The notes under the pieces were generated by a model. The model was not told the DNA's origin, searched no databases, and saw nothing but the letters and a program-made list of their open reading frames with translations. A DNA stretch of 64,000 nt from assembly GCA_043803105.1 (NCBI GenBank), contig JAZDKJ010000006.1:96001-160000 (forward strand), given 5' to 3'. The translations under genes were made by a program, and so were the position numbers. Below, in pieces: positions 3,067 to 42,677 of the stretch (position 1 is its first letter; every line of letters begins with the position of its first letter). The DNA is from Candidatus Woesearchaeota archaeon. GTDB taxonomy: Archaea; Nanobdellota; Nanobdellia; Woesearchaeales; JAZDKJ01.

Positions 3067-3627
3067 GTGGCTGCTAGCAAGCTCGAACAGAGGATAGTTG
3101 GGCTGTTTGTTGACGTCAAATCAGCCTTTAGTATTCTTCAGATTGCAAAGATGATGAACACATCCTATCCTCATGTATATAACGCTGTTCAAGGTTTGAT
3201 CGAGCAGGGCATACTCTCAAAGCTCGTTGTTGGCAATGTTCATCTTTGCCAATTGAACCTTGATAATGATCTTACCATAAGCCTGCTGTCGCTTCTCGCC
3301 TTACAAAAAAGAGAGCCGCTAATTCGCAAGCACAAATCTGTTCACCAGTTCCTCGCAAGCCTAAAGCACTCAAATCTGAGGTTTTCCGTTGACTTCTCAT
3401 TCTTCCTCAAGGGTGAATACTATCTTGTGGTGCACGATGCACATGAATGCAAATGGATACAGCAGTCCTTCGGCACAGCAAAGTGCTTGGACTTGGCTAG
3501 CGGCCTTGATCTCTTGGCATTGCATCACACAGAAGCTACTGTCCTACTGGGCTTCGAGCGCTATTATCAGGCCCTTTTCAGCATTTTCGACAGGCTTCAG
3601 GGACCGCTGGAGTTCAAACATGAATAA
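3067..3627 (+). CDS. Winged-helix transcriptional regulator with a C-terminal domain of unknown function
   Basis: The N-terminal FSILQIAKMMNTSYPHVYNAVQGLIEQGILSKLVVG has a wHTH pattern. The gene overlaps the start of the giant protein by 8 nt. Confidence 0.75.
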   Translation: MAASKLEQRIVGLFVDVKSAFSILQIAKMMNTSYPHVYNAVQGLIEQGILSKLVVGNVHLCQLNLDNDLTISLLSLLALQKREPLIRKHKSVHQFLASLKHSNLRFSVDFSFFLKGEYYLVVHDAHECKWIQQSFGTAKCLDLASGLDLLALHHTEATVLLGFERYYQALFSIFDRLQGPLEFKHE

Positions 3628-20447: not shown

Positions 20448-21209
20448 ATGACAAATTCTGAACCTGAAAGGATTAGGGTGGGAGTGCCTGGGTTTGATGA
20501 CCTGATTGAAAAAGGCCTGCCTAAAGGCATCAATATACTGATTTCTGGTGGGCCTGGGACAGGCAAGACCACTTTTTGTCTTCAGGCGCTTGCCTATGGT
20601 GCGAAAAATGGCGAGAAATGTTTGTACATGTCATTTGAAGAAAGCAGGGAAAGGTTGTTGCAGCACATGCGAGACTATGGGTTTGACCCAGACAGCCTGC
20701 TAGAAAAAAATCTTCTTATGATAAAGTGCATTGACCCATTCCAGATTTCGCGTTCGGTTGAGGCCTTGCTGGCAAGCGCACGAGGAGAATTGCTGATTGA
20801 TATTAATGAGGTTGCACCGATGCTGCCTGTCGATTTTAAGCCTGACAGGATAATCTTTGATTCTTTATCTGCTGTTGCAGCTGCCTTCGCAGAAAAAGAG
20901 GAAGGCTTTAGGGTTTATATAGAACAGTTATTTCGGGAGTTGGGAAAAGTTGGAGCCACGTCATTTCTTATTTCTGAGGTGGAACAGGGGCTGACCAGAT
21001 ACAGCAAAAGCGGTGTTGAAGAGTTTCTGGCTGATGCAGTGATCGCTTTCTATAACCTGCGGAGGGAAAATCTGAGGCTAAATGCTCTTGAGATCATCAA
21101 GATTCGTGGTGCTGCCCACCAGAAAAAGGTCGTTCCTTTTAGCATGTTGTCTGGGAAAGGAATCGAGGTTTATCCTTTGGAGAACATTTTCACAACAGAC
21201 AAAGACTAG
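20448..21209 (+). CDS. KaiC-like (RecA-superfamily) single-domain signal-transduction ATPase
   Basis: GVPGFDDLI start, Walker A GGPGTGKT, SFEE, Walker B IIFDSL, EEFLADAVI, IIKIRG. Confidence 0.93.
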   Translation: MTNSEPERIRVGVPGFDDLIEKGLPKGINILISGGPGTGKTTFCLQALAYGAKNGEKCLYMSFEESRERLLQHMRDYGFDPDSLLEKNLLMIKCIDPFQISRSVEALLASARGELLIDINEVAPMLPVDFKPDRIIFDSLSAVAAAFAEKEEGFRVYIEQLFRELGKVGATSFLISEVEQGLTRYSKSGVEEFLADAVIAFYNLRRENLRLNALEIIKIRGAAHQKKVVPFSMLSGKGIEVYPLENIFTTDKD

Positions 21210-21320: not shown

Positions 21321-21518
21321 AAGACTGGCATAAAAATTCAGAAGGATATACTAGAATTGTTGGCTTTGTATGATAGACCTCTCTCAACTAGGGAGCTTGC
21401 GCTTGACCTTGACCATGCCTGGCATTCTATCCAGAATAACTGCCTTCGCCTGCAGATTGCCGGCAAGGTGCGCGGTTTTAGGGTCGGCAACATGAACCTA
21501 TGGGAATTAAAAAAGTAG
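21318..21518 (+). CDS. Small winged-helix DNA-binding protein
   Basis: 66 aa: ILELL...PLSTRELALDLDHAWHSIQNNCLRLQIAGKVRGFRVG, an HTH plus wing. Confidence 0.85.
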   Translation: MKTGIKIQKDILELLALYDRPLSTRELALDLDHAWHSIQNNCLRLQIAGKVRGFRVGNMNLWELKK

Positions 21519-24500
21519 GGAAAGGCCTTGTACTAGGCTGCGCAGCAATACTTGTTATTCTTATAGTCATTGCCCCGGCAGGCAATGATTGTGGAAGCAA
21601 TTCACCTTGCACTTGTGGGGTTGCCTGCCAAGGCCAGCTTGATCCACAATCCAACGGTTACAATACCATCGACTCCTGCATCGATGGTTCTAATCCAAAG
21701 TATGAGTGGGTTCAGGATATCAACGTTACAGATTTTAACAGCTCCCAGTTTCGCACAGGTCATCGGGTTCAGGTAGATGTCTTATTCAAGTGCGACCTTG
21801 GTGAAGGTGATGAGGTCTCCATTAACTACTATAACGGGTCTGTCTGGCGTGTAATCAATAACGGCTCGTGCAACATCAATGCCTATGTTCACTTCAGGAA
21901 AAACATAACTCTCGATAAGGCTGTTGGCGCCCAGGCGTTTAGGGGAGTGATTGCTTGGGGTGGCATCCCGACAGGAATGATATGCGGTCATGATTATGAT
22001 ATCACCTATTCTGATACTGATGATGTCCTCTTGGATGTCTTGAGCAGTTCTGACACGGTTGGCCCGACAGTTAGTCTGATATATCCGCCCAATGCGGCAT
22101 CAGTAGTGTCCCGATACATGGATTTCAATTTCTCTGTTTCAGATAACAGCTCAGTCCTGAACTGCTCTTTGTGGTTCAACTCCACCGCTGGTTTCAAACT
22201 CAATAAGTCGATGACCTCAGGGCTCAACAATCACTCCCAGACCTACCGCTTCCAGGTTAACCTCTCTGACTCCAGTTATAGATGGAACATCCTTTGTTAT
22301 GATGACTGTGGCAACAGTGCCTGGTCTTCCGCAAATCGAACCTTTGGCCTCGATACCCATCGCCCAAAAGTGTATTACCTTCCCTCCACTCCTTCCGCTC
22401 CCTATCTAAACCTTACCTCTCTTGTCATCAATGTCTCTGCATTCGATAAGAATAATGTCAATCTGACCCTTGAGTTTAACGGAACAAACCAGACTGGTGT
22501 TTTTCAAACGTATGACCACAACATTTCCACTGTGGTCAAGACTGGACTTGCTGGTACATACTCATTCAAGATTTTTGCAAGAGACAGGTATAATAACACA
22601 AATCTTACTCCCAAAAGGACAGTGACGCTGGACAATGCGCCGCCTGCCGCATTTGACATAAACAAGCCTGCCAATAACACGCAAGGCACTCAGCCCATAC
22701 ACCTTATCCCCTTCCTGAACTGGTCTTGGTCCTTTGACCAGAATTTCAAGAATTATACCATCGAAGTTTCATCAAACCCTAGCTTTGCTTATAGGAATTA
22801 CACCTATTCTGTTATAGGTCCCTTTTCCCTGTCACATTATCAAGTCAGCCTTACTTGGACCGACCAGACCATTTGGTACTGGAGAGTCTGGGCTTTTGAC
22901 CTTATAGGAAATGCCAGACGCTCCACAAACTACTTTGTTTTCCGTGCGAATACCAGTTATCCGTCCGTGTTCTTGTCTTCACCTTTACACAATCTGTTTT
23001 CCAATGACGAATCTGTCGTTTTTACTTACACGCCTCGCGATTCAGACCTGGACCAATGCATGCTCTGGCACAATATTTCTGGAGAGTTCATGCCGAACGA
23101 GACAAACAGCTCGCCAGTCAGTTTTCAATTAAACCAGTTCAGCCCTCTCTCATTGCCTGAGGGATCCTTCATGTGGAACGTCCTGTGCAATGACTCTACA
23201 GGCTTGCAGTCCTTCGCAAGTTATGAATTCTTGTTCACAATACACCGCACCCCTCCAACTGTGGATTGTGATTCTTACACTCCAGATGAGGGAGAGACAG
23301 TTACGAACAGGACTTTCCATCTCGGCGCAGAAATTATTGAGAATTATCCAGATAGTTTGCTCATGCAGTTTAATGGCTCAAATCAGTCCTTCATGCTAAA
23401 CAGTTCAAATTTCTCGATTAACAAGACAGTCACCTCTGATGGCTCTTACTCCTTGCGGTTCTTTGCAAATGATTCAGCAGGCAACAAGGGTTCCACAGTT
23501 CAAAGGAACTTTGTTGTGGACACCTCTCCTCCAACAATATCCGACATCCAGGTCACTCCGCAGATTGCTTTGCCATCCAAGGTGTTCAACGTCTCCGCAA
23601 CCCTGTCCGATCTGACTGGCGTTCTTTCTGCTCATTGCGTGCTCACGATGCCTAACAGCACTGTCCATAATTACACAATGTACGGAACTTCAAAAAAGTA
23701 TTATGCTTACTCAGGTGCATCTGTAGGAAACTATTCGGTTGTGGTTTGTGCCACCGATAATAATGGTTTTAGCGGATGCAATTCTACTGCTCTCATTTTC
23801 ACTGTTGACAACTCGACCATCTTAATATCGAATATCTCCACAAAACCAAACTCTAGCGATGCTCTCGACCCTAACGTTGTCATCTACATCAACACCACCA
23901 TTCACTCCGCCAGGTCGCTTGCTTCTGTTTTGTTAAAATACAAAGAGCATAACTCTACTGCTTGGTCATCTTCTAAAAGCAAGGAATACATTGCAGACCA
24001 TTTCGTTTTCAATTTCACTCCAACGCGTGGCAATAATTGGACGTACAAGATATGGGCTAACAACACCTTAGGAAAGAATGTTTCTAGCAGTCTTTCAACT
24101 TTGCAGGTTTGGCTTGACCGTACGTGGACTGCGCAAAAATCCGGCTTGACCAGCATTGCTGCGCCCTACGGCGCAACCAATGTGGATTTGGGTATAATCC
24201 TTGTAAATAACACTGGTGATTCGCAATTGACTTTCAATTTGTCCAGGGTGTCTGGTGAAGTCCAGGTCAGCTTTAACCTTACTGACCTTTTTACCATTGC
24301 CTCAAAATCTTCTCAAGCCATAGCTCTTCACGCCTCCGCCCCGGCCCTGGCAGGCTCTTATCCAATCAGGCTGCGCCTGGATGCCCTGAATTCTATGGCA
24401 CAGCCTTCTGAAACAACCCTTAACATTACTCTTATTTCATATTCTTCAGGACCTTATGTACTGGTTTCTATTGCCGATTATTCCAATGCAGTTTCAGTGG

Positions 24501-26071
24501 GAGAAAATGTCCCTCTGCTCAAGGCTAGCGCCCGTAACATCGGAAACTCATCCTGCAATGATGCCTATCTTGTTTGGTCTCTGCCTCCTGATTGGACTTC
24601 TAGGGATTCATTGAATAATTCGCTCGGAGATATTGAGGTTGGTGCAGTTTTATACAGCAATATTTCTGCTGATGTTCCAGAATCTGCAGATACAGGAACA
24701 TTCTCCCTGTTGGCAAGCCTGGATTGCCAGGATGGTTTCCACTTTGAGGATTCGCGTGCAATCACAGTGTCTTCTAGTGCGCCAGAGCCTCCGCAGCAAA
24801 ATCCTGCTTCTTCATCCAGTGGCCGTGGTGGCGGAAGCATTGTGACTAAGACCATCCGTGCAAAACAACCAAACTTGAACCTGACCGCCCCTTCACAGGT
24901 TTATGCAGCCCTTGGGCATTCAGTTAATTTCACAGTGCTTGTTTCTAATGAGGATTTTGGGATAGACAACGCAACCCTTATTCTCACCGGCTATTACCTT
25001 ACGCATACAATAATCGAGCCTGTGCTGCTGCATCAATTGGCTCCGGCTGCCCAAGGCAAGTTCAAAGTTAATCTGTTTGTCCCAGATTACCTTCCGGTAA
25101 AGTCTTATGACCTCAAATTAATAGTTGAGGCAAAACTCGCAGGACAAAATCATTCAAGTCGCTACTCCAAGGACCTGATTTTGGTTGTAGCGGCTTCTAG
25201 CATGCAGGATGTGGCAAACTCTCTTATGGACGCACAAGATGATCTTTCCTCCCTGTCCAGTTTGGGCATGGACACAACTATTCCAAGAGCATGGCTAAAC
25301 CAGGCAATGTTAAGCTTCAATGAGTCAGATTACAGTTCTGCATCCGAGTTTGCATCGAAAATACATGACCTGCTTGCCAAAGCTAAACAATTTACAGCTT
25401 TGATTGCTGAAGTGCGGTTGCAGCTTGCAGAATCTGCTTCCAAAGGAATAAATCTTTCCCTATCAAATGATTTGATATCAATTGCAGAGCGTGAATTCAG
25501 GTCAGGTAGGGTTGATGATGCACTGCAGACCCTATCCAAAGCCTCTTTTGCAGAGCGTCTGCAGGTTAAGACTGAGCAAGCCAAGCTTGTTAGGAGCCTG
25601 GTCTGGTTTTTGCATGATAACCTTCTTGCACTATCAGTTGTATCTCTCATTGCAGCTGCAGCTTTCCTTCTCTCCTATAGTAAGCTTCATTCAGTTTTTA
25701 TCGCTAAAGGTTTACTGTTAATTAACAAGGGTGAACTTAAAGCCTACGAGGAATTAAGAAAGCTCCAACGGCAGTATTTTGTCGAAAAGATAATCAGCGC
25801 CAGGTTATACGCTAAAAACGTTCAGCGACTGCAGGAAAGGATTGCCAAGCTAAACTACAGGCGCTTCAATCTTACCTCTAAAAGAAAGTATGGCTTCAAA
25901 GATAAGCTGGCAGTTCAGGATGAGATCCAGCAGCTTAACCTGATGCAAAAGGAACTCGCAAACAAGTATTATGTGCTCAAGACCCTTGATAAAGCCTCTT
26001 TCATGCAATTGAAGGTCTTGTGCGAAAATCGTCGTGCAATCCTCGAGGGAGAACTGGTCAAACATGTTTAG
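21500..26071 (+). CDS. Large membrane-anchored surface protein (1523 aa): Cys-rich N-terminus, Ig repeats, helical stalk, TM, cytoplasmic SHOCT-like tail
   Basis: Signal peptide, Ig repeats of the same type as the giants and an SSSSGRGGG linker. A helical region precedes the TM LLALSVVSLIAAAAFLLSY, followed by tails LQRQYFVEKII and LANKYYVLKTL. Confidence 0.88.
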   Translation: MGIKKVGKGLVLGCAAILVILIVIAPAGNDCGSNSPCTCGVACQGQLDPQSNGYNTIDSCIDGSNPKYEWVQDINVTDFNSSQFRTGHRVQVDVLFKCDLGEGDEVSINYYNGSVWRVINNGSCNINAYVHFRKNITLDKAVGAQAFRGVIAWGGIPTGMICGHDYDITYSDTDDVLLDVLSSSDTVGPTVSLIYPPNAASVVSRYMDFNFSVSDNSSVLNCSLWFNSTAGFKLNKSMTSGLNNHSQTYRFQVNLSDSSYRWNILCYDDCGNSAWSSANRTFGLDTHRPKVYYLPSTPSAPYLNLTSLVINVSAFDKNNVNLTLEFNGTNQTGVFQTYDHNISTVVKTGLAGTYSFKIFARDRYNNTNLTPKRTVTLDNAPPAAFDINKPANNTQGTQPIHLIPFLNWSWSFDQNFKNYTIEVSSNPSFAYRNYTYSVIGPFSLSHYQVSLTWTDQTIWYWRVWAFDLIGNARRSTNYFVFRANTSYPSVFLSSPLHNLFSNDESVVFTYTPRDSDLDQCMLWHNISGEFMPNETNSSPVSFQLNQFSPLSLPEGSFMWNVLCNDSTGLQSFASYEFLFTIHRTPPTVDCDSYTPDEGETVTNRTFHLGAEIIENYPDSLLMQFNGSNQSFMLNSSNFSINKTVTSDGSYSLRFFANDSAGNKGSTVQRNFVVDTSPPTISDIQVTPQIALPSKVFNVSATLSDLTGVLSAHCVLTMPNSTVHNYTMYGTSKKYYAYSGASVGNYSVVVCATDNNGFSGCNSTALIFTVDNSTILISNISTKPNSSDALDPNVVIYINTTIHSARSLASVLLKYKEHNSTAWSSSKSKEYIADHFVFNFTPTRGNNWTYKIWANNTLGKNVSSSLSTLQVWLDRTWTAQKSGLTSIAAPYGATNVDLGIILVNNTGDSQLTFNLSRVSGEVQVSFNLTDLFTIASKSSQAIALHASAPALAGSYPIRLRLDALNSMAQPSETTLNITLISYSSGPYVLVSIADYSNAVSVGENVPLLKASARNIGNSSCNDAYLVWSLPPDWTSRDSLNNSLGDIEVGAVLYSNISADVPESADTGTFSLLASLDCQDGFHFEDSRAITVSSSAPEPPQQNPASSSSGRGGGSIVTKTIRAKQPNLNLTAPSQVYAALGHSVNFTVLVSNEDFGIDNATLILTGYYLTHTIIEPVLLHQLAPAAQGKFKVNLFVPDYLPVKSYDLKLIVEAKLAGQNHSSRYSKDLILVVAASSMQDVANSLMDAQDDLSSLSSLGMDTTIPRAWLNQAMLSFNESDYSSASEFASKIHDLLAKAKQFTALIAEVRLQLAESASKGINLSLSNDLISIAEREFRSGRVDDALQTLSKASFAERLQVKTEQAKLVRSLVWFLHDNLLALSVVSLIAAAAFLLSYSKLHSVFIAKGLLLINKGELKAYEELRKLQRQYFVEKIISARLYAKNVQRLQERIAKLNYRRFNLTSKRKYGFKDKLAVQDEIQQLNLMQKELANKYYVLKTLDKASFMQLKVLCENRRAILEGELVKHV

Positions 26072-27455: not shown

Positions 27456-27965
27456 ATGTTTGATACAGAGGTGGAGAAAAATCAAGTAATCTTATGCGTG
27501 AGTTCTGAAGGCAGTTTTTATGTCTCCAGGTCAGAGATATTAAAGGCTTTGAAGCTGACAGGCAACAACATCTGTTATGTTGGTTTCTCAAAGCCATACC
27601 AGGCGTTAAAGAACGAGTTAACGGAGTTTCCCAGCATATTTTACATTGACACCTTGACAATGTCAGTTCAAATGCCCCCTCATGTGGATGACTGTTTCTT
27701 TGTCCAGGCTCCAAATGCTTTGACTGACCTCTCTGTTGCCATCTCCAAGGTTATGTCCGAGAAAGGACCTTCAAACATATTTTTTGACTCCCTTTCAAGT
27801 CTTCTGCTCTATCAGGATAGCCATACTCTGATCAAGTTCCTTCATAACCTTATCAACAAGGTTAGGGTGCTTAACGTGAAAATAGTATTTGTTGTCTTGC
27901 AGAAAGACGCCAAATCTGACCTCGTGAAAGACCTGTGCATGTTTGTTGATATTGTAGTCAACTGA
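27456..27965 (+). CDS. Degenerate (no Walker A) KaiC/RecA-fold protein
   Basis: ICYVGFSKPY, FYIDTLT and IFFDSLSSLLLYQD match the inactive KaiC-like pattern. There is no GxxxxGKT. Confidence 0.8.
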   Translation: MFDTEVEKNQVILCVSSEGSFYVSRSEILKALKLTGNNICYVGFSKPYQALKNELTEFPSIFYIDTLTMSVQMPPHVDDCFFVQAPNALTDLSVAISKVMSEKGPSNIFFDSLSSLLLYQDSHTLIKFLHNLINKVRVLNVKIVFVVLQKDAKSDLVKDLCMFVDIVVN

Positions 27966-27990: not shown

Positions 27991-28074
27991 TCCTGGATAA
28001 AAATCAAACTTTTTTTTCCTTTTTCCTGGTTTATTTACCTAAAAATTAGGATATTTATCCGAAAAATTTATAAA
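27991..28074 (+). promoter_or_regulatory. Promoter (CGAAAAATTTATAAA) with GGATA/TATCC operator-like motifs
   Basis: BRE/TATA at 28060-28074. Palindrome GGATA-TT-TATCC at 28049-28060 and CCTGGATAAAAATCAAA at 27992-28008. Confidence 0.6.
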
Positions 28075-28090
28075 GGTTTAAAAAGTTATC

Positions 28091-28399
28091 ATGTATATGG
28101 CCTCCATACTGAGCTCAAGGGTCAAAGATGATGGAAAAGTGGTTTTTGAAGTCATCGTAGATTATGATGAGGCCATCCAGCTTCAGGGCCACCTTGACAA
28201 CATCCATCTTTTTTCAGAGAATGTGATCAACGTAACTGCAAATCTTTCCCAAAGGGGCAAGAATGAGGCTACAAAGTACTTCCTTGTTCCTCGGGAGCTA
28301 CGGAAGAACCTTAAGATGTCAAGCGAAGTCACCTGCCAAAGGATTGAGACAAAATCAAGGATCTTTTTTGTGTATGTTATGGATAAGCTGAGGCCTTAA
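28091..28399 (+). CDS. Small beta-rich protein, probably an AbrB/SpoVT-like DNA-binding fold
   Basis: The C-terminal half SQRGKNEATKYFLVPRELRKNL resembles the AbrB 'IPKxxR' motif. The start could be ATG 28097. Confidence 0.55.
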   Translation: MYMASILSSRVKDDGKVVFEVIVDYDEAIQLQGHLDNIHLFSENVINVTANLSQRGKNEATKYFLVPRELRKNLKMSSEVTCQRIETKSRIFFVYVMDKLRP

Positions 28400-28400
28400 G

Positions 28401-29099
28401 ATGGAGAAGGTGCGAACAGAGATTCCCGGATTTGACCGCCTGTTGAAGGGAGGTTTTCCAAAGGGTTCGGTCATTTTATTGAGCGGCTCCCCCGCTACTG
28501 GCAAGACAATTCTCTCGCTGCAGTTTCTTGTGAACGGTGCAATAAATGATGAAAAGTGCCTCTTCATCACGTTTGAAGAGAAGATAGGAATGATTATTGA
28601 GCAGGCTAGCCAGTTTGGCTGGGACCTCCCAAAGCTTCAGAAAAAGAACACCCTATTCCTGCAGCATATTCCTTCTGAGGAGATTGACCACAGGACAGTC
28701 GAACGCATCATCGATTCTGTTAAGCGCTTGAACATCTCTCGGCTTGTTATAGACAGTATTAACATTCTTGCGTTAAACATCCCAGACCTTGCAAGCGACT
28801 ACAAGAATATTGGCAAGTATTCTGTAAAGCGTTTTATTTATAGGTTCATCAACTCTCTCAGGGGTCTGAAGGGCGTTACCACTATGCTGATTTCTCAGAC
28901 TGTGAATGAGGGCGCACTCTCTTCAGATGAGGTTTCTGAGTTCCTTTGTGACGGGATAATCCATCTTTCGTACGAGAGCATGGGCGGCAAGTATTCTCGG
29001 AGCCTACTTGTGAGAAAGATGCGCCAGGTAGAGAATGATGAAGACATCCATCCCTTGGAGATATCAAAGAAGGGCCTTGTCGTGCACACGATAAGATAA
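28401..29099 (+). CDS. KaiC-like single-domain ATPase
   Basis: TEIPGFDRLLKGG, Walker A GSPATGKT, TFEE, LVIDSI, EFLCDGII, VRKMR. Confidence 0.93.
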   Translation: MEKVRTEIPGFDRLLKGGFPKGSVILLSGSPATGKTILSLQFLVNGAINDEKCLFITFEEKIGMIIEQASQFGWDLPKLQKKNTLFLQHIPSEEIDHRTVERIIDSVKRLNISRLVIDSINILALNIPDLASDYKNIGKYSVKRFIYRFINSLRGLKGVTTMLISQTVNEGALSSDEVSEFLCDGIIHLSYESMGGKYSRSLLVRKMRQVENDEDIHPLEISKKGLVVHTIR

Positions 29100-29101
29100 C
29101 T

Positions 29102-29740
29102 ATGGCAACCCCAAGTATCCTGGAAAAGATAATTCGTTTTCAAGCCTTCAAGTGGAAGGACGGTAAGATCATTCTATGGAATGTTCCTGGTTATCTAAGC
29201 CCCCTCTTCTCCGTTGTTTATCAGCAAAGATTGTTGGAGAAGCTGCATGGCCATAATGAGGCTGCCGAGTTCTTTTACAATGTTGGCAAGTTCCAGGGCC
29301 AGCAAACCTTTCGCGTGATAGCCCGAAACTATGGATACAACAACCTAATCAAGGACAAGAAGAGGCTGCTCGAGTTTCAAACAGGTCAAAGTGCTCTTGT
29401 TGGCGTTGGAGAATACACCTGGGTAAAGTTTGACATGGACAACAAGAAGTTTGTTGTGAGGGGTAGGTCCTCATTTGCAGACGAGTACGTGGCGCTATTC
29501 GGGATTCAAAAAAAACCTGTCTGCCATCTTGTGCGAGGTCTTTGTGCTGGCTTCATTGAAGAGCTTATCAAAGAGCCGTGCCTGTCGATTGAGACGTCAT
29601 GCATTGCATCCTCTAACCCTGTCTGTGAGTTTGTTGTCCGGCCATTGAAGGCCTGGGATAAAACTGATCCTTTGGTAAAATCGCAGTGGGTTCGAAAAAT
29701 CCATGACCTGCGATCCTTGGGAAGCCTGAAATCTCCTTGA
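29102..29740 (+). CDS. V4R (4-vinyl reductase) domain ligand-binding protein
   Basis: FYNVGKFQG...PVCHLVRGLCAGFI...ETSCIASSNPVCEFVV is the V4R Cys motif. Confidence 0.88.
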   Translation: MATPSILEKIIRFQAFKWKDGKIILWNVPGYLSPLFSVVYQQRLLEKLHGHNEAAEFFYNVGKFQGQQTFRVIARNYGYNNLIKDKKRLLEFQTGQSALVGVGEYTWVKFDMDNKKFVVRGRSSFADEYVALFGIQKKPVCHLVRGLCAGFIEELIKEPCLSIETSCIASSNPVCEFVVRPLKAWDKTDPLVKSQWVRKIHDLRSLGSLKSP

Positions 29741-30350
29741 ATGCTCCTTCTTCGATGATGATGTTATCGCTCCTCTCAAACAAAAGCTTATCGTATGGGT
29801 GCGCAAAACCATTCATTTCTATATGCATCGGCACTGCGCCGTTGTGCATCGGTCCGTAGTACTTTTGTTCTCCTATGACTTTTACCCCAAGTTTTTCGTA
29901 TTCCACCACTCTGGCAGGCGGCACTGTGCAGACAAAGTCAGTAAGCCCGATTTTTCTCGAATACTGGCACATTGCCTTCAGCAGCCCAAAGGTTGCCCTT
30001 GGATGGTTCGGGAGCGTTGCGCGCCTCGTTATTTCCCCTAGCCTTTTCCCCTGCATTCTTATATCCGAGATGTCATACAGCTCTTCTATCGGCAGTCCAA
30101 ACTCGCTGTCTGGGATGATGCGTATGGTTCCCACAACCTGCCCGTCCGCCTTGTTTCTTGCATATATGTTTATTGAGAAGTTGTCGTACATATCGCTCAT
30201 AAGTTGTCCTGGAAAATCCTCGGCTACTATGAATTTTGAATCAAGGTACACAGAATATCTGAGCTTGAACACCTCTCTTTGTTCCTCTTCAGTGCATGCT
30301 ATTCTGAATTCCAGACCCATTGTACAGAAATGAATTGCGCTCTCCGTCAC
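29613..30350 (-). CDS. GNAT-fold acyltransferase of the LuxI / N-acyl amino acid synthase (FeeM)-like group
   Basis: VFKLRYSVY...SDMYD...VVGTIRII...GLPIE...GEITR...YEKLG. GTGA overlap with the radical SAM stop; alternative start ATG 30320. Confidence 0.8.
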   Translation of the reverse strand: MTESAIHFCTMGLEFRIACTEEEQREVFKLRYSVYLDSKFIVAEDFPGQLMSDMYDNFSINIYARNKADGQVVGTIRIIPDSEFGLPIEELYDISDIRMQGKRLGEITRRATLPNHPRATFGLLKAMCQYSRKIGLTDFVCTVPPARVVEYEKLGVKVIGEQKYYGPMHNGAVPMHIEMNGFAHPYDKLLFERSDNIIIEEGAFKEISGFPRIAGHGFFEPTAILPKDQFYPRPSMAGQQTHRQG

Positions 30351-31867
30351 GAGAGTGTTTGGTTTATTGATTCAATAGTCTTCCTGACCTCTTTGTAGTC
30401 CCCGGTTGCAAGATGCTTTCTCATATTATCCCGAAATGTCCTCGGGTCTGTCCCGCAGCAGCTGGCCATGAGTATTATCTCATCAATCACTTGTGTAAGG
30501 ATTCCGTGCTCCTCAAGACTTTGCGCGAAATCATTGCTTTCCCTTGCCAGTTCCAGGAAGCTCTTTCCATCTACCTGGTAGGACAATCTGTCCCACTGGC
30601 TTGGGGCCAGTAATAGCTTGGGCGTGAAATACATCAATTCCCGGTTGTGTTGCTCAGTTAACCTGATCCCGTATTTTTCTGCCTGGTTGTACCATTTGCT
30701 GTGCGGAGCTATTATTGGGATGCTTACAGGCACAGAGTCTGGCCTTGTCTCAACCAAAAGTTCGAGGGTCTCTTTTTTTGTCTTCTCTGTTTCGCCTGGT
30801 GCAGGCACGATTACGCTTGTGATTACAGTTATCCCTGCTGCCTTGGTGTCTGTCACAACGCGCCTGATTGTTTCTTTCTTCAGCTTCTTGTCTATCGAGT
30901 AGTCGAGTATCTCTTGGCTGCCTGATTCCATCCCGAAGAAAATGCTTGCATATCCCGCCTTTCTCATCGCAGCAAGATGGTCGCTCCTGATGTTGTTCAT
31001 GTGGGTTGTTCCTGCGTATGTGAACCCGTACTCCTGGCTTGCAAGTTTCTCTGCCACGCCCTCAAGCGCAGGTCTGCTCGTGTCAGAGTCTCCGCTCCTG
31101 AACACATGCGCGCCATAGGTTGTTTTGTATGTTTCCAGCTCCTGTACAATTCTTTCAGTGCTTCTGTCCCGCGATACAATTCCGCTTTTTGCCGGATGCA
31201 CGCAGAAATTGCACTGATAAGGGCACCCCCTGGTCCATTCCGTGACCAAGATCCTTATTTTCTCTTCAAAAGCTGGATATACCTTTGTATCATATGTTGG
31301 CACAGGAAGCGCATCAAGGTCTGCTATCCTTTGTTGCTTGTTCTTCTTGACCGCTCCATTTGACATATACATCAGGTTTGGCACCCTGGTGATGTCCTGT
31401 TTTCCTTTAATGAAGTTAGCCAGTTCGACAATTGTTTCCTCTCCCTCGCCTGAGGACAGAAAATCAAAAGAATGTGTTACCTCAAAAACCTCCTCCCCAA
31501 ATATGTCCACATGCGGACCCCCGCCACAAACAGGCAACTTTGGATTGAGTTTTTTCAGCCAGTCTGCTGTAATAGTGGACACCCTGAAGCCTTCACCTGT
31601 CCAAAGCTTCATTCCGACAAGGCTTGGTTGCTGGTCAAGTATGATTTCAGCGATTTCTCTTGAATATTGGTTCTGGTTGTTTTCAAGCTCTTCTGGCGAT
31701 TTTCCGTACAATCTCTTCATGGACTCTGGAGTGTTAAAATCCAGGATTAGTGGTTCATGGCCTGCTTGGATTAGGCAGGCTGCAAGCCCTCCCAGGCCAT
31801 TATCAGGCAGAAACGCGCTCGGTGTTTGTGGATAACCGTTAAAGCTCACAAGGACTATCTTGTCCAT
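30347..31867 (-). CDS. Cobalamin-binding radical SAM enzyme (class B methyltransferase-like)
   Basis: N-terminal B12-binding pattern (GGPHV...GEGEETI), TRGCPYQCNFC CxxxCxxC motif and FGMESGSQEIL. Confidence 0.92.
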   Translation of the reverse strand: MDKIVLVSFNGYPQTPSAFLPDNGLGGLAACLIQAGHEPLILDFNTPESMKRLYGKSPEELENNQNQYSREIAEIILDQQPSLVGMKLWTGEGFRVSTITADWLKKLNPKLPVCGGGPHVDIFGEEVFEVTHSFDFLSSGEGEETIVELANFIKGKQDITRVPNLMYMSNGAVKKNKQQRIADLDALPVPTYDTKVYPAFEEKIRILVTEWTRGCPYQCNFCVHPAKSGIVSRDRSTERIVQELETYKTTYGAHVFRSGDSDTSRPALEGVAEKLASQEYGFTYAGTTHMNNIRSDHLAAMRKAGYASIFFGMESGSQEILDYSIDKKLKKETIRRVVTDTKAAGITVITSVIVPAPGETEKTKKETLELLVETRPDSVPVSIPIIAPHSKWYNQAEKYGIRLTEQHNRELMYFTPKLLLAPSQWDRLSYQVDGKSFLELARESNDFAQSLEEHGILTQVIDEIILMASCCGTDPRTFRDNMRKHLATGDYKEVRKTIESINQTLS

Positions 31868-31892
31868 TTTTTGCCCTCTTTTTAACAGTTGT

Positions 31893-31967
31893 CCAGGATA
31901 ATCAGATATTTAAACCTTATCGGCTAAATTTATCCTAAAAAAGTATTATTAGGATAAAAAAATCAAA
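31893..31967 (-). promoter_or_regulatory. Promoter of the radical SAM-GNAT operon with inverted repeat TTTATCCTAA-N10-TTAGGATAAA
   Basis: Minus-strand CGATAAGG-TTTAAATA at 31907-31922. Perfect 10-bp inverted repeat at 31929-31938/31949-31958 and an extra CCAGGATAA at 31893-31901. Confidence 0.65.
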
Positions 31968-32134: not shown

Positions 32135-32662
32135 ATGGGCTCTAGGCCAACCTCAAATCGACTGCTGCTCTTTCTCTTGAGTGAGGGCCAGTATGTAAGT
32201 CGGTTGTTATACCTTCTGCATTTGGTGGGGATGACGAAGAATAAGATATGTTATGTTTGCCTGACCAAGCCTTTCAAGGACTTGCTGCAGGACTTTGCTG
32301 ACAACCGGATTGATAGTAGTTTTTTCTTTTTTGTGGATGTGCTGAGCAGTCATTATGGCCTCCCTGATCCTTGCAGCAATTGTATTTTTGTCGATTCACC
32401 ACAAAACCTTGAAGGAATTGCTGATGCTATCGCACAGGCTGTTGAGCGCGAGAACTGCAACCTAATAGTTATAGACACAATCTCAAATCTTCTTTTGTAC
32501 CAGGAAGGGTTTCCCTTGCTGCGCTTTGCCCATCAGCTTGGAGAAAAAGATATAGTTAAGCTCTTCCTTGCCCTCAAGCATGACAGTGTCCCTGCAAAAG
32601 AGAATCTCGAGTTGATAAATGACCTCAGGATGCTCGCTGACCAGACTATTGATTTAGGATGA
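32135..32662 (+). CDS. Degenerate KaiC/RecA-fold protein (paralog of 27456-27965)
   Basis: ICYVCLTKPF, FFVDVLS and IVIDTISNLLLYQE, with no Walker A. Confidence 0.8.
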   Translation: MGSRPTSNRLLLFLLSEGQYVSRLLYLLHLVGMTKNKICYVCLTKPFKDLLQDFADNRIDSSFFFFVDVLSSHYGLPDPCSNCIFVDSPQNLEGIADAIAQAVERENCNLIVIDTISNLLLYQEGFPLLRFAHQLGEKDIVKLFLALKHDSVPAKENLELINDLRMLADQTIDLG

Positions 32663-33025
32663 TAGCTTTTTTACTCTGGCTACAAGGTCGTCATTGTCGA
32701 ACGGTTTGGTGATGTAATCAAGAACGTGCATCTTGTTCAGCACCTCCTTTCCCACTTCAGAGAATCTTGCGACCGTGACGAACGCGACCTTCAATTTCTT
32801 TGTCTTTGGGTTTGCCCTGATCTTTTCGCAGGTCTCTCTTCCTGACATTCCAGGCATCATCATGTCAAGTAGTATTGCGTCAGGTTTTGTTTTCTTTAGT
32901 TTTTCCAAAGCCTCAGGCCCTGATCCTGCAGTTATCACATCAAAACCGTTGCCCTCGAGCACTGCCTTCACGAGCTCAACTATGTGTTCCTCGTCATCGA
33001 CAATCATGATTTTCTTTTTTGCCAT
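32654..33025 (-). CDS. Single-domain response regulator (receiver)
   Basis: IMIVDDE, LLDMMMPGMSG and ITKPF. The start at ATG 33025 is supported by a minus-strand AGAAAAATTAATAAA BRE/TATA ~26 nt upstream. Confidence 0.95.
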   Translation of the reverse strand: MAKKKIMIVDDEEHIVELVKAVLEGNGFDVITAGSGPEALEKLKKTKPDAILLDMMMPGMSGRETCEKIRANPKTKKLKVAFVTVARFSEVGKEVLNKMHVLDYITKPFDNDDLVARVKKLSS

Positions 33026-33154
33026 CTGGTTGTTGCGCTGCACAGCGCTGTTTATTAATTTTTCTGTTGCGCCTTCATCCTGTTGGCAACCTACCTTTTG
33101 TTACTATGTAGTTTGTGCGCACGTTTATATATCAATATCTTAGAATGCTTGCCT

Positions 33155-33373
33155 GTGACTGGTTTGAAGCGTGACATCGTGGGTATTATTTCAGGTTTCT
33201 TTGGCAAGGAGACTGCCGATATGGTTGACAACTACTATTCAGAAGATAAGCCGGACGAATTGATTGCGGTGGCAATAAAGATGCTTTCTGGATTCCTGGG
33301 ACCTGCAAGCGCGAACAAACAACTGCAGCCGCTGCTGACAAAATATCGGAAGGTGATCCACAATGCATCATAA
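33155..33373 (+). CDS. Small helical protein of unknown function (paralog of 34155-34382)
   Basis: Likely GTG start at 33155, ~24 nt after TTTATATA. Sequence LKRDIVGIISGFFGKETADMVD...FLGPASANKQLQPLLTKY. Confidence 0.7.
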   Translation: MTGLKRDIVGIISGFFGKETADMVDNYYSEDKPDELIAVAIKMLSGFLGPASANKQLQPLLTKYRKVIHNAS

Positions 33374-34178
33374 AGACCTTTTCAAGATTCTCTTGGTTGT
33401 CTACACCCTAATGTTGGTTTTTGCCTACTCGACCACTTCTGTCCCTGTTGAACTGAGAAACCTTTGGCAGAATTCATTGTTTGTTATTGCTCCTCTTGTT
33501 GCCACAGGAATTGGTATCTATGCCTTGCGCAGGTTTGATTTTAGGAGCATCCACGGCAAGACCTTGTTGTTGGTTGCAGTCGGCCTTGCTTTTTGGTCCA
33601 TCGCTGAATTGCTGTGGCTGATTTTCGAATCAATCCTGGGAAGCAGTGCCTTTCCGTCGGTTGCTGACTTCTTCTACCTTGCAGCATATCCAATGTTTAT
33701 TCTTGCTGCAGTTAATGAGCTTAGGCTTGGTAGCATAGAATGGACAAAAATCAGGTTGCTTGTCAGTCTTGCTGTTCTTGCTCTCTTGTCTTTTGTTACC
33801 CTGCATTTTAATAGCTATTTGTACAATGCAAACCAGAGCTTTTGGGTAAACATGATTCTGCTTGCTTACGTTGTGGCTGACCTATTGGTGATAGCTGCCT
33901 TGGTTCTGTTGGTAAACCTCTCTCTTTCCTTTAAGGGCGGTGCCTTCTTCAGCTCCTGGTTCATTTTTGCGTTTGCCATGTTGTTCTACTGGCTTGCAGA
34001 TCTCTTGTTTGCAGTCTATCAGAAGCAGTATGGCGCATTGCAGCCCCTCTACAGGCAGATAGATTATTTGTGGATTATAGCTTATCTCCTAATCTCTTAT
34101 GCCTTGTTCAGGCAAATAGATGCAGTCAACAAGATGAAAGATATGGTCCTTGCCTCAGTGCGGAAGGCTTCTCGCTGA
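33363..34178 (+). CDS. Polytopic membrane protein resembling a stand-alone membrane sensor domain
   Basis: About 7-8 TM helices. The FPSVADFFYLAAYP motif is typical of the N-terminal membrane region of kinases and cyclases. No output domain is present. Confidence 0.75.
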   Translation: MHHKDLFKILLVVYTLMLVFAYSTTSVPVELRNLWQNSLFVIAPLVATGIGIYALRRFDFRSIHGKTLLLVAVGLAFWSIAELLWLIFESILGSSAFPSVADFFYLAAYPMFILAAVNELRLGSIEWTKIRLLVSLAVLALLSFVTLHFNSYLYNANQSFWVNMILLAYVVADLLVIAALVLLVNLSLSFKGGAFFSSWFIFAFAMLFYWLADLLFAVYQKQYGALQPLYRQIDYLWIIAYLLISYALFRQIDAVNKMKDMVLASVRKASR

Positions 34179-34487: not shown

Positions 34488-36494
34488 TCATATTTCTTTC
34501 GCTTCCTGGTGTGTTATTGTGCTTGGCTTGAAGGGTATGGTAAAAAAGAAAGTAGAGCCCTTCCCCAATTTGCTCTCAAACCATATCCTCCCTCCCAAAC
34601 CCTCTATCAATTCTTTGCATATTGAGAGTCCTAGGCCGCTGCCTCCAACCTCTCTTGTTAAGGGGTTCTCAATCTGGTAGAACCTGGTGAATAATTTTGA
34701 GAAATACTCTTTAGGTATTCCAATGCCATTGTCTGCCACACTGATCCTGACAAATTTGTTGTCCCGTTTTGCTGCAACCTCGACAGTGCCTTTTTTGCTG
34801 TATTTTATCGCATTATCCACCAGGTTGATGAGCACCTGACGTGTTCTTTCCTTGTCTGTTTCTGCCTGCGGTATGCCTCGATCCACCTTAATCTTTAGCT
34901 TCAGTCCCCTTGCTGTTGCTTTCGGTTGCAGTTCCTCCACGACCTCTCCTACCATCTTCGGAACATCCAGTGTTTCTATGGTGAATTTCAATGTGCCAAG
35001 GTCGAGCCTTGACAAATCAAGTACCTCTGTCACTAGTTTGGCAAGGCGCTTCACTTCATCCCTGATTATGCCCAGATACCTACTCCTTGTCTTGACGTCG
35101 CTGATTGTCTTTTCACTTTCAAGCAGCTGTGCAAACCCTGTTATTGCAGTCATTGGTGTCTTTAGCTCGTGCGCTGCAATCGATATGAAGGTGTCCTTTT
35201 CTTGGTCGAGTTTTTTTAGCTCTAACACATTAGCTTTAAGGCCTTTCTGGGCTTCCAAAAGTTCTTTGTTGCTCTTGTCTAGGTCTTCCATCATGTTGAG
35301 CATCGCATTTTTTGTGCCTGTGAGCTCGGCAACTTTCTTCTTCAACTCCCTAGTTCGTGCGTCAACTGTTGTTTCCATTTCTCCGCTGTGCCTTTCTATT
35401 TGAGCCTTTGATTTTTTCAGCTCTTCAGTCATTTTGTTGAATATCTCTACAAGCTGCCGGAATTCATATATTGCACTTGGTTTCACTTTCGTGCTTAAAT
35501 CCCCGCTGGCGAGTCTTGTTACTGCGTCCTTCAGGTCTATTATTGGCTTCTCAATCATCTTGGAAACATAAAGGCCTATGCCCAGGGAAACAAAAATCAT
35601 GCATATGACAATGAGTATTATGATTGCCTGCAGCCGGGTTACCGGTGCCATGGCTTCCTGCTCGTTCATTTTTGCGATCAGGCACAGTTCTGTTTCCGGC
35701 AGCCAAACATACATTGTCAGGCTTCTTACACCTCTATAATCCGCGAAAACCCCTTGTCCTGACTCTCGCTTCAGGCACCTTTTCACAGCCTCCGTGAATA
35801 TTGCTTTGTTGAATTCTGCTCCTGGTATGAATCTGGATGATGTAACCAAGAGGTTTAGCCTGTTCACGAGTATTGTCTCGCCGCTCTGTCCTAGCCCAGC
35901 CCTTTCTGCCATTATTTCAGATACCTCATCAGGATCGATTTTGCCTGCCAGGACTGCTATTGTGTTACCAGCGCTGTTGCGCAACGGTGTGGAAATGATT
36001 ATGATTGATTTCTGCGTTGATGCATCATAACGGAAGCTCTGGACAAATGTCCTGGTCTTTGCTTGTGTGAAAAAATCTTCTTCAGATCTCATTTTTCCTT
36101 CTTCCTGTTCATCCGTAGACAGGTGCACCCTGCCTTCTTTGTCCATCACGAATAACTCTAAGAAATCCGGCGATATTGAGAGCGATTGTATCAGGAGCTG
36201 CCTCATCTCATTGTGCGTGCTCAGATTGTGATATTTTGTCCCGTTTGGCAGAAAGAGTGGGCTAAAGGCATGCACCAGGGCATGCTCTGAGGCAACCCCT
36301 TCCAGCTCACGCTTCTCCTGTTTGATAAACATGTTGATTTCTGTTTCCTTGAGAACTGCCACGCTGTTCAGTTGGTCAAATATCCTGGCCCCTACAGCAT
36401 CTCTACTGTACAGGTAGATTCCGTAGCTCCCCAGGGACATAACTATCAGTGAGGATATTGTGAACATTACTGTCAGCTTAAGTCCTATTCTCAT
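34488..36494 (-). CDS. Sensor histidine kinase (TM-dCache-TM-HAMP-coiled coil-HisKA-HATPase)
   Basis: H-box AAHELKTPM, N-box NLVDNAIKYS, G1 DNGIGI and G2 GGSGLGL. A Cache-like extracellular region lies between two TMs. Confidence 0.95.
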   Translation of the reverse strand: MRIGLKLTVMFTISSLIVMSLGSYGIYLYSRDAVGARIFDQLNSVAVLKETEINMFIKQEKRELEGVASEHALVHAFSPLFLPNGTKYHNLSTHNEMRQLLIQSLSISPDFLELFVMDKEGRVHLSTDEQEEGKMRSEEDFFTQAKTRTFVQSFRYDASTQKSIIIISTPLRNSAGNTIAVLAGKIDPDEVSEIMAERAGLGQSGETILVNRLNLLVTSSRFIPGAEFNKAIFTEAVKRCLKRESGQGVFADYRGVRSLTMYVWLPETELCLIAKMNEQEAMAPVTRLQAIIILIVICMIFVSLGIGLYVSKMIEKPIIDLKDAVTRLASGDLSTKVKPSAIYEFRQLVEIFNKMTEELKKSKAQIERHSGEMETTVDARTRELKKKVAELTGTKNAMLNMMEDLDKSNKELLEAQKGLKANVLELKKLDQEKDTFISIAAHELKTPMTAITGFAQLLESEKTISDVKTRSRYLGIIRDEVKRLAKLVTEVLDLSRLDLGTLKFTIETLDVPKMVGEVVEELQPKATARGLKLKIKVDRGIPQAETDKERTRQVLINLVDNAIKYSKKGTVEVAAKRDNKFVRISVADNGIGIPKEYFSKLFTRFYQIENPLTREVGGSGLGLSICKELIEGLGGRIWFESKLGKGSTFFFTIPFKPSTITHQEAKEI

Positions 36495-42062: not shown

Positions 42063-42677
42063 ATGCAGAAAAAGGGGCATGTAGTAACTAAAACGAGGCT
42101 TGAGAATAATGCTTTCTTTAGGTTGAAGAATCAAAACCATCTGCAAGACATTCGTGAAAGCCTTTCTGACCTCTCTGTAAAGGATGTTGATAATCTTTTA
42201 CAGAGCATGATTGAGAAGTATAATCTCCCTTATGAGGAGGTTGTGAATCTGTTCAGGCAAAAATCCCATTCTGCTCCTGCAATATCTGTGCCCTTGCTCG
42301 TTTTCCGTGAGAAAAGGCTAACCCATCTACAGTCTCTCGTTAAGTACTTGAGAGAATCAGAGAATGTCTCATTGCCAGAAATAGCACTGCTTTTGGCTAG
42401 GGATGTTTCCGCTGTCTCTCAATTATACTCCCAGGCAAAGCACCTCACGCCTGAGCCATTTCAGATAGTCGATGACGAGATCTGCGTGCCAATAGCTGTG
42501 TTTAAGGACAGGAACCTAAGCATTCTCGAGCATCTCGCAGAGTTCCTAAAAGACACGATTAAACTTCGGTATAGTGAGATTGCGAGGCTTCTTGACCGTG
42601 ACCAACGTACTGTCTGGACAGCCTATGTGAGGGGCAAGGACAAAAGGTTAAGGCTTTTGGAAGGGGTGCCTGCATGA
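42063..42677 (+). CDS. Tandem-HTH DNA-binding protein
   Basis: Two internal repeats: VPLLVFREKRLT...EIALLLARDVSAV and VPIAVFKDRNLS...EIARLLDRDQRTVW. ATGA overlap with giant protein 2. Confidence 0.82.
   Translation: MQKKGHVVTKTRLENNAFFRLKNQNHLQDIRESLSDLSVKDVDNLLQSMIEKYNLPYEEVVNLFRQKSHSAPAISVPLLVFREKRLTHLQSLVKYLRESENVSLPEIALLLARDVSAVSQLYSQAKHLTPEPFQIVDDEICVPIAVFKDRNLSILEHLAEFLKDTIKLRYSEIARLLDRDQRTVWTAYVRGKDKRLRLLEGVPA

Follow-up and report, generated by a model that had tools for sequence, protein, structure and literature searches.

A conserved gene module in a DPANN-type archaeon, Candidatus Woesearchaeota archaeon (contig JAZDKJ010000006.1), places two enzyme genes tail-to-tail against the genes of a candidate sensor. 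It lies in a 64,000-nt stretch, called the window here; coordinates are positions in this window, and related loci and genomes carry labels of the form L001 and G000 (G000 is the source genome, 1.56 Mb in 13 contigs and 96% complete). On the minus strand, a GNAT N-acyltransferase of the FeeM/LuxI clade is paired with a cobalamin (B12)-binding radical S-adenosylmethionine (SAM) enzyme. On the plus strand, a small protein (s102), a KaiC-like ATPase and a stand-alone V4R protein form the operon that faces them. The best and most economical reading of this arrangement is a self-regulated circuit, in which a ligand synthase and its cognate V4R-KaiC sensor are linked by feedback, and we rate its chance of being correct as even. 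A functional coupling of the enzyme unit with the KaiC-V4R-s102 unit is well supported at the level of gene order and sequence, because their adjacency is conserved, each is present once in the genome and they share a candidate operator. To our knowledge, little is understood of chemical signalling in archaea, and least of that in DPANN symbionts.

Open reading frame (ORF) listing and family searches bear out the layout that the original prediction had read from the letters, a minus-strand radical SAM and GNAT pair converging on a plus-strand operon. The operon spans 28091-29740 and opens with s102 (102 residues, 28091-28399; the likely start is the ATG at 28097, which gives 100 residues), a protein without a family match. 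It continues with a single-domain KaiC-like ATPase of 232 residues (28401-29099; PF06745, 180.3 bits against a cut-off of 26.6, 5e-53) and the V4R protein of 212 residues (29102-29740; PF02830, 41.8 bits against 31, 1.1e-10). On the minus strand lie the GNAT (29613-30350, probable start 30320; PF21926 FeeM, 96.4 bits against 27, 1.9e-27) and the class B radical SAM enzyme of 506 residues (30347-31867; PF04055, 69.1 bits against 29.5, and PF02310, 42.1 against 32.1). Four of the five proteins thus belong to known families, and because the arrangement recurs across many genomes it is far beyond chance.

Conservation of the neighbourhood had been named beforehand as the decisive test, and it is strong for the FeeM-type GNAT together with KaiC-V4R. 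Two samples were used, profile searches of 400 other genomes of the phylum and a separate contig search anchored on s102. In the first, the GNAT profile matches 17 of the 400 genomes and the V4R profile 46, with both in 15 of those 17; a profile is needed, as a single-protein GNAT query found no match in 60 relatives. In 14 of 15 evaluable genomes the neighbour of the FeeM-type GNAT gene is a V4R or V4R-like gene lying after KaiC, with the two tail-to-tail in almost every case; two more genomes were left out because the contig ends at the gene. The exception (G388) encodes a 162-residue GNAT with no V4R within 3.4 kb; leaving aside the two unpublished genomes, G388 and the adjacent case G278, makes it 13 of 13. 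The s102-anchored search gave 89 relatives, of which 80 loci were kept, with 11 duplicating loci of the first set. KaiC is followed by V4R in 23 of these loci, and all 22 that can be evaluated have a convergent gene next. In 19 of the 22, one of the first two convergent genes encodes a FeeM-profile GNAT, and a class I methyltransferase or B12 radical SAM enzyme is present in 20. The convergent 3' ends usually overlap by 4-20 nt or sit a few bases apart. Since protein identities across loci are just ~25-65%, the layout is old. One locus, L073, is titled 'Candidatus Nomurabacteria bacterium'; it has the same ORF order, module ORF lengths and s102 match as the Woesearchaeota locus L072, belongs to the same sample series, and is probably a mis-binned archaeal contig.

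Across these loci the sensor side is constant and the enzyme side is variable. The expectation that the radical SAM-GNAT pair as a whole would keep company with V4R and KaiC therefore stands for the GNAT and not for the radical SAM enzyme, which is found in 6 of 15 GNAT loci: its gene lies immediately before that of the GNAT in the window and in 5 of the first 14 loci. Elsewhere the GNAT is fused to, or adjoins, a class I SAM methyltransferase that replaces or joins the radical SAM enzyme. Some loci add, by Pfam, a ThiF-family protein, an acyl-CoA dehydrogenase, a Haem_oxygenas_2 protein or a pyridoxal phosphate enzyme; one has a REC-FeeM fusion beside a histidine kinase and a flavin adenine dinucleotide (FAD) oxidase, and another an LPG_synthase_C protein with an NAD_binding_4 reductase in place of the GNAT. 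The common theme of these enzyme sets may be the joining of amino acids or small amines to lipid-like groups, which fits a sensor of hydrophobic ligands.

The direct sequence evidence that the two operons may share a regulator is a common motif in their promoters. Upstream of s102, a candidate operator (27995-28060) comprises GGATAAA at 27995-28001 and the inverted repeat GGATA-TT-TATCC at 28049-28060, and a TTTATAAA box lies between it and the start codon. The divergent region between the radical SAM gene and a KaiC paralogue (the second iKaiC, described below) holds a perfect inverted repeat, TTTATCCTAA-N10-TTAGGATAAA (31929-31958), which is a candidate shared operator. The genome contains 37 intergenic copies of GGATAAA/TTTATCC, and oppositely oriented copies are found only in the two intergenic regions flanking the module. 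The heptamer recurs in the matching promoters of other loci: across 47 V4R loci, a set that still includes one duplicate (L137 = L047) and the near-identical pair L072/L073, module promoters hold 88 sites in 16.1 kb (5.5/kb) against 30 in 26.1 kb of other intergenic DNA (1.15/kb), with at least one site in 27 loci and at least two in 23. Across 1.22 Mb, 38 inverted pairs within 30 nt were counted, compared with a mean of 1.26 for 104 permuted heptamers and a maximum of 17, reached by an overlapping word. Their spacings cluster at N11-12 and N15-16. In 11 loci such a pair precedes a radical SAM, GNAT, methyltransferase or acyl-CoA dehydrogenase gene by at most 250 nt, and in 9 loci it stands at that distance before s102; others precede iKaiC, V4R-like, UbiA-operon and surface-protein genes.

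By its profile and predicted fold, the GNAT belongs to the FeeM family and is remotely related to the LuxI enzymes, the clade to which the original prediction had assigned it from short motifs. Those motifs are all present (FKLRYSVY; DMYD, residues 43-46; GTIR, 64-67; EITRR, 96-100), and the PF21926 match covers residues 26-177, or profile positions 1-157 of 158. A search of PDB sequences with a profile of 16 GNATs finds FeeM first (2g0b, 1.6e-13), then the LuxI-type BjaI (6.7e-9), TofI (7e-6) and LasI (4e-5), with MesI and RpaI as further matches of this type. In a Foldseek search with the AlphaFold2 model (predicted local distance difference test, pLDDT, 84.3), ranks 1-6 are chains of 2g0b (E ~1e-11, template modelling (TM) score 0.75-0.79); BjaI comes after FeeM (TM 0.63/0.69) and protein acetyltransferases rank lower. 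LuxI enzymes conserve an N-terminal Arg/aromatic element, Asp-x-x-Asp, an Arg and Glu-x-Ser-Arg. In the GNAT, R21, Y25, D43/D46, R67 and E96-x-T98-R99 are aligned with their counterparts in BjaI, and the Trp position is not kept. Pfam Autoind_synth (PF00765) gives no match to the window GNAT at E <= 0.01, and one fused relative (L051) reaches that model at 24.0 bits, exactly the cut-off of 24. Models of other acyltransferases fall short as well: OlsB (NF052554) scores 20.6 bits against 350, and the PEP-CTERM/exosortase-associated family (TIGR03694) 56.2 against 111.95, over the N-terminal 80 residues only. The GNAT does not group with membrane-lipid acyltransferases or protein acetylases in these searches, an outcome that had been named beforehand as counting against the original prediction.

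The extent of the GNAT gene deserves a comment. A word-indexed search returned one weak relative, and exhaustive HMMER searching returned 1352 at E <= 0.001, four of them at E <= 1e-30. The best are ~190 residues long, begin at the window ATG at 30320 and end ~45 residues ahead of the window stop; the last ~45 residues of the window protein are not conserved and are predicted to be disordered in the AlphaFold2 model. The 128-nt overlap of the GNAT and V4R 3' ends stems from this non-conserved tail, since the homologues end ~45 residues earlier. The FeeM-type GNAT is a single-copy gene in the genome, and so is a V4R of this type.

The V4R protein resembles ligand sensors, and the KaiC protein has the motifs of an active-type ATPase. 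V4R aligns over residues 40-193 with the NCBIfam model MobR, and a profile search of the PDB finds MopR (5kbe, 1.6e-6); this resemblance to the MopR/PoxR sensor domains agrees with the proposal that it is a hydrophobic-ligand domain. It carries E164-x2-C167-x7-C175, the pattern of the zinc site in the MopR-type sensor domains; among 12 orthologues C167 never varies and C175 hardly does. Passages of one study describe V4R domains as homologous to Bet3 and as presumed binders of hydrophobic ligands that signal in cis or in trans (PMC2253512). The KaiC-like protein has Walker A (GSPATGKT, residues 29-36), FEE with the catalytic Glu (58-60) and Walker B (LVIDS, 115-119), and these columns are invariant in 15 orthologues. 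Complex prediction for KaiC with V4R, made without control runs, scores 0.00 and gives no verdict. A second active-type KaiC gene (253 residues, PF06745 5.6e-47, weak MEDS match) lies at 20448-21209, between surface-protein genes of 718 and 1523 residues.

The small protein s102 is the constant partner of KaiC or iKaiC across loci. It is 43-66% identical to KaiC-adjoining proteins in other genomes, with a mean column identity of 53% over 16 sequences, and has no Pfam, NCBIfam or PDB match (the PDB profile search is empty at E <= 10, and Pfam at E <= 10 gives only noise). Its ESM Atlas clusters are unnamed and mostly from Archaea, Nanobdellota being the commonest phylum among members with a record, and the contigs that encode its relatives are titled almost entirely Woesearchaeota, Nanoarchaeota or Pacearchaeota. 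The label 'AbrB-like' that had been given to it is not borne out by the sequence tests: the MazE/AbrB model PF04014 misses the window protein and finds one of 16 orthologues at E 0.16, and this model finds 8 other places in the genome, none of them at s102. Alignment by hhalign with the genome's own AbrB proteins gives 21.6% over 24 columns, an RG-x-IP-x-x-R loop, so the likeness remains a motif-level resemblance only. The AlphaFold2 model (pLDDT 59.7) is too poor for a fold search. Many loci have two divergent s102 paralogues (L078, L087, L092, L094-L096, L098, L100, L103, L106, L112, L118), and in L078, L112 and L118 a palindrome lies in the short region between the pair.

The radical SAM protein is class B by its domains, a B12-binding domain and a radical SAM core whose CxxxCxxC motif reads CPYQCNFC at residues 215-222. 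Among the 25 of its 36 NCBIfam matches that are listed, none reaches an equivalog cut-off (e.g. ApyD, HpnJ, PhpK, BchE); the best, ApyD (141 against 750, 3.3e-41) and rSAM_ocin_1 (1.5e-31), are both far under theirs. Its activity would be that of a methyltransferase. The protein has at least 12 matching places in the 1.56-Mb genome, its own gene among them; seven of the matches cluster within ~40 kb on contig C13 (others are on C3 and C8), in a genome where no CobS was found. The genome's SAM synthetase is of the bacterial MetK type (PF02773; G000 C5:107422-107841), and the archaeal type (PF01941) was not found in it.

How might these parts work together? The GNAT could acylate an amine, which would be an amino acid or the amino-acid moiety of SAM, and the cobalamin radical SAM enzyme would tailor the substrate or the product, with C-methylation as the likeliest change. 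Together they would yield a modified N-acyl amide, for instance a lipoamino acid or a compound resembling an N-acyl-homoserine lactone. V4R may bind this hydrophobic product, or a precursor, and thereby change the state of the KaiC-like ATPase, with s102 passing the output to DNA as the presumed regulator that binds the palindrome. Since the same GGATAAA/TTTATCC element is present in both promoter regions, the two operons are proposed to form a feedback loop, similar in logic to LuxI/LuxR and the lux box.

Several observations weigh against such a circuit. Family searches of the genome find no PP-binding/acyl carrier protein (ACP), AMP-binding acyl-CoA ligase, acyl-CoA dehydrogenase or CobS. 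The original prediction had noted that DPANN-type cells often lack ACP and B12 synthesis, and with ACP, acyl-CoA ligase and CobS all undetected in a 96%-complete genome, the acyl donor and B12 would probably come from the host or the surroundings. V4R is co-directional with the enzymes in three loci, an arrangement that would also fit a role in the enzyme machinery: in L056 and L057 it runs with the radical SAM gene (and the GNAT) and converges on KaiC, and in L070 KaiC, V4R and a GNAT-methyltransferase fusion are all co-directional. A sister cassette, made of s102, KaiC and a 371-residue tandem V4R-like protein (V4R-like in its N-terminal half, hhalign 96.7%), faces FAD-oxidoreductase, HMGL-like and UbiA genes, and a cassette beside such operons weakens a reading specific to signalling. 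The module is also patchy, as single-protein queries find neither GNAT nor V4R in an 84%-complete genome of the same genus, and the related genomes are not independent samples. Finally, s102 is not recognisable as a DNA-binding protein by sequence or by its low-confidence model. The sister cassette occurs in L081, L095, L106, L143, L117, L124 and similar loci, its HMGL-like gene being of the homocitrate/isopropylmalate-synthase type.

Some of these points bear on an alternative in which the module serves regulated lipid remodelling. The enzymes would make or modify an envelope lipid, such as a methylated lipoamino acid, and the cassette would sense the state of membrane or host-derived lipids in homeostatic feedback. 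This reading is favoured by the prenyltransferase-linked sister cassette and by the LPG-synthase variant: the same type of cassette stands tail-to-tail with genes for a UbiA prenyltransferase, an FAD-dependent (geranylgeranyl-reductase-like) oxidoreductase and an HMGL-like protein, and also beside the LPG_synthase_C gene and its fatty-acyl-reductase-type NAD_binding_4 partner. An NCBIfam model of a lipid-biosynthesis B12 radical SAM enzyme is among the matches of the window protein, under its cut-off, and no mapped locus has an exporter on the enzyme side. In bacteria, relatives of FeeM and OlsB reportedly make aminolipids (PMC11631085). On the other hand, the GNAT is far from the OlsB model, no fatty-acid activation genes are visible in the genome, and a distribution as patchy as that of V4R (46 of 400 genomes) would be unusual for core membrane maintenance. 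A signal-controlled enzyme is suggested by the REC-FeeM fusion next to a histidine kinase, and this fusion, together with the LuxI-like residues and the lux-box-like layout, favours a signal. Lipid remodelling is a rival reading that we hold to be possible rather than probable; if true, it would show control of amphiphile production in an organism without fatty-acid synthesis.

The surroundings of the module bring in the cell surface. As had been noted from the sequence, giant Ig-like/CARDB surface-protein genes flank the island on both sides, with products of 4950, 1523 and 5347 residues (3389-18241, 21500-26071 and 42674-58717). Homologues of the 1523-residue protein and of its 471-residue neighbour recur beside s102-KaiC cassettes (L112, L044, L087, L106, L094, L098), and homologues of the 718-residue CARDB protein (18238-20394) come directly after s102 in L141, L140, L142, L082 and L126. 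In L141 (7303-9629), GGATAAA-N12-TTTATCC lies between s102 and the gene of the 718-residue type. These arrangements hint that, in some lineages, the regulon extends to surface proteins.

Such hints enter into a further alternative, that of quorum or host-contact sensing. Here the cell would use acyl donor and B12 supplied by the host to make a diffusible autoinducer, which V4R would sense and which would control community behaviour or attachment, including the giant surface proteins. All the evidence for a synthase-sensor circuit applies to it. Apart from the Trp, the GNAT has residues aligned at the positions generally given as conserved in LuxI, its best LuxI-type matches (BjaI, MesI, RpaI) are CoA-dependent, and two relatives bear the automatic JGI/IMG name 'N-acyl-L-homoserine lactone synthetase'. 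Some luxI/luxR pairs are convergent and have a lux box, and the tail-to-tail layout and palindromic promoter box of the module recall them; the recurrence of the surface-protein homologues beside s102/KaiC cassettes, with the palindrome in L141, points the same way. Set against this are the lack of an Autoind_synth match in the window GNAT and the absence of any LuxR-type family among the proteins of the locus, to which the LuxR search was confined. The surface-protein genes of the window are not preceded by a palindrome, and passages of a survey of quorum-sensing genes in Candidate Phyla Radiation (CPR) and DPANN genomes give LuxI homologues for CPR bacteria only and none for DPANN (PMC7567580). 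We consider quorum or host-contact sensing unlikely, and the same holds for its fullest form, an archaeal counterpart of LuxI/LuxR with a methylated N-acyl amide autoinducer, a V4R receptor, a KaiC switch and s102 acting on lux-box-like palindromes to read host contact or density. If sensing of this kind were true, a DPANN cell would regulate its own production of the signal and, in some lineages, that of its giant surface adhesins.

Two other readings fare worse. V4R could be a lipid-binding carrier that delivers the acyl substrate to the GNAT and radical SAM enzyme or removes their product, in place of ACP, with KaiC powering or gating the step. An acyl chain is carried, for example, by Bet3. 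The lack of a detected ACP, the homology of V4R to Bet3 (as given in passages of PMC2253512) and the three co-directional loci would suit such a role. Yet V4R is transcribed with KaiC and against the enzymes in all 22 evaluable s102-anchored loci, its closest solved relatives are sensor domains of regulators, and the shared promoter palindrome points to transcriptional control, so that we think a carrier very improbable. Least probable of all is modification of a peptide or protein, either a lipopeptide akin to ribosomally synthesised and post-translationally modified peptides (RiPPs) or acylation of KaiC, V4R, s102 or a surface protein: the best NCBIfam matches of the radical SAM enzyme are RiPP enzymes, if far under their cut-offs, and sets of ThiF, methyltransferase and GNAT recall peptide tailoring, but the nearest relatives of the GNAT act on small amines, and 11 radical SAM/GNAT loci hold no conserved small ORF outside the known genes, all candidates being shadows of KaiC, V4R, s102 or the radical SAM gene.

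The synthase-sensor circuit would sit within a wider signalling island. Just before s102 lies a P-loop-less KaiC-like protein of 169 residues (DUF7504, 'iKaiC'; 27456-27965, plus strand; PF24336, 35.3 bits against 27, with a weak KaiC match), and beyond the enzymes its 175-residue paralogue (32135-32662, plus strand; weak DUF835 match) is followed by a stand-alone REC response regulator (32654-33043, minus strand; PF00072, 1.2e-27), a recurrent neighbour of iKaiC genes. In other loci iKaiC homologues adjoin the cassette, and the pair of response regulator and iKaiC recurs there. To the right of the response regulator are a dCache-HAMP histidine kinase (34488-36494, minus strand), two solute-binding proteins, a dCache-HAMP protein and a PAS protein. 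A third arrangement of the cassette genes joins s102 to a P-loop-less KaiC and a response regulator (L123, L126, L128, L132, L135), followed in L123 and L132 by a homologue of the window's 271-residue multi-pass membrane protein (33363-34178); its palindromes lie upstream of a gene for 450-500 residues, two genes before s102. GC content is flat across the window, and Rfam and tRNA scans find no tRNA gene or Rfam family in it. A defence-system reading was rejected: PADLOC gave just two weak domain-level matches, KaiC to mad8 (7.4e-5) and the radical SAM enzyme to PDC-M51A (3e-9). No RNA sequencing run is listed with the organism, and one DNA run is, with a share of 0.06.

Taken together, the original prediction was right about gene content, the clade of the GNAT, the likeness of V4R to ligand sensors and the neighbourhood; the AbrB label is not supported, and the radical SAM enzyme is not a constant partner. 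What remains is a conserved test bed that comprises an enzyme pair, a candidate receptor, an ATPase, a candidate DNA-binding protein and a 30-bp candidate operator. With no genes for an acyl carrier, acyl activation or B12 synthesis detected in the genome, the circuit may report on supply by the host. If the circuit is real, the KaiC-like 'hub' gains a concrete input (V4R and its ligand) and a concrete output (s102 and the palindrome). The notion of archaeal KaiC-like ATPases as hubs was reportedly set out by Makarova, Galperin and Koonin in mBio in 2017. The literature searched, at the level of titles, abstract openings and some passages, holds no description of this module, nor an earlier one of a LuxI/FeeM-type synthase with a cognate sensor in DPANN; that 2017 paper lies outside this literature and may list a KaiC-V4R neighbourhood. 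The NAME paper (PMC11580390) offers no biosynthetic genes for comparison.

Among known systems, FeeM (PF21926, 2g0b) is the closest on the enzyme side, being the best solved relative of the GNAT by both profile and fold, with the Pfam cut-off exceeded by the window protein. The differences are that the profile alignment covers positions 54-168 only, whereas the N-terminal part of the GNAT aligns with LuxI-type enzymes, and that the archaeal host has no detected ACP, the carrier from which FeeM enzymes take the acyl group for an amino acid, and pairs the gene with a B12 radical SAM enzyme or a methyltransferase and a KaiC-V4R cassette. The likeness to LuxI/LuxR, especially BjaI, MesI and RpaI, is one of remote GNAT homology, with R, D-x-Y-D, G-x-R and E-x-S/T-R at aligned positions, and of layout, a synthase gene tail-to-tail with that of a ligand sensor and a palindromic box in the synthase promoter; unlike in those pairs, the candidate receptor is V4R with a KaiC ATPase and s102, and the GNAT does not match Autoind_synth. 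Archaeal KaiC-like ATPases have been termed 'signal transduction hubs', a concept cited in a passage of PMC5847659, and the island resembles such a hub in bringing together a single-domain KaiC, P-loop-less paralogues, REC proteins and sensor domains. With MopR, PoxR and XylR, lastly, the V4R protein shares its alignment to the phenol-sensor domains of these bacterial enhancer-binding proteins and the E-x2-C-x7-C pattern; there the sensor is joined to AAA+ and helix-turn-helix output modules, whereas here V4R stands alone and is encoded with a KaiC ATPase.

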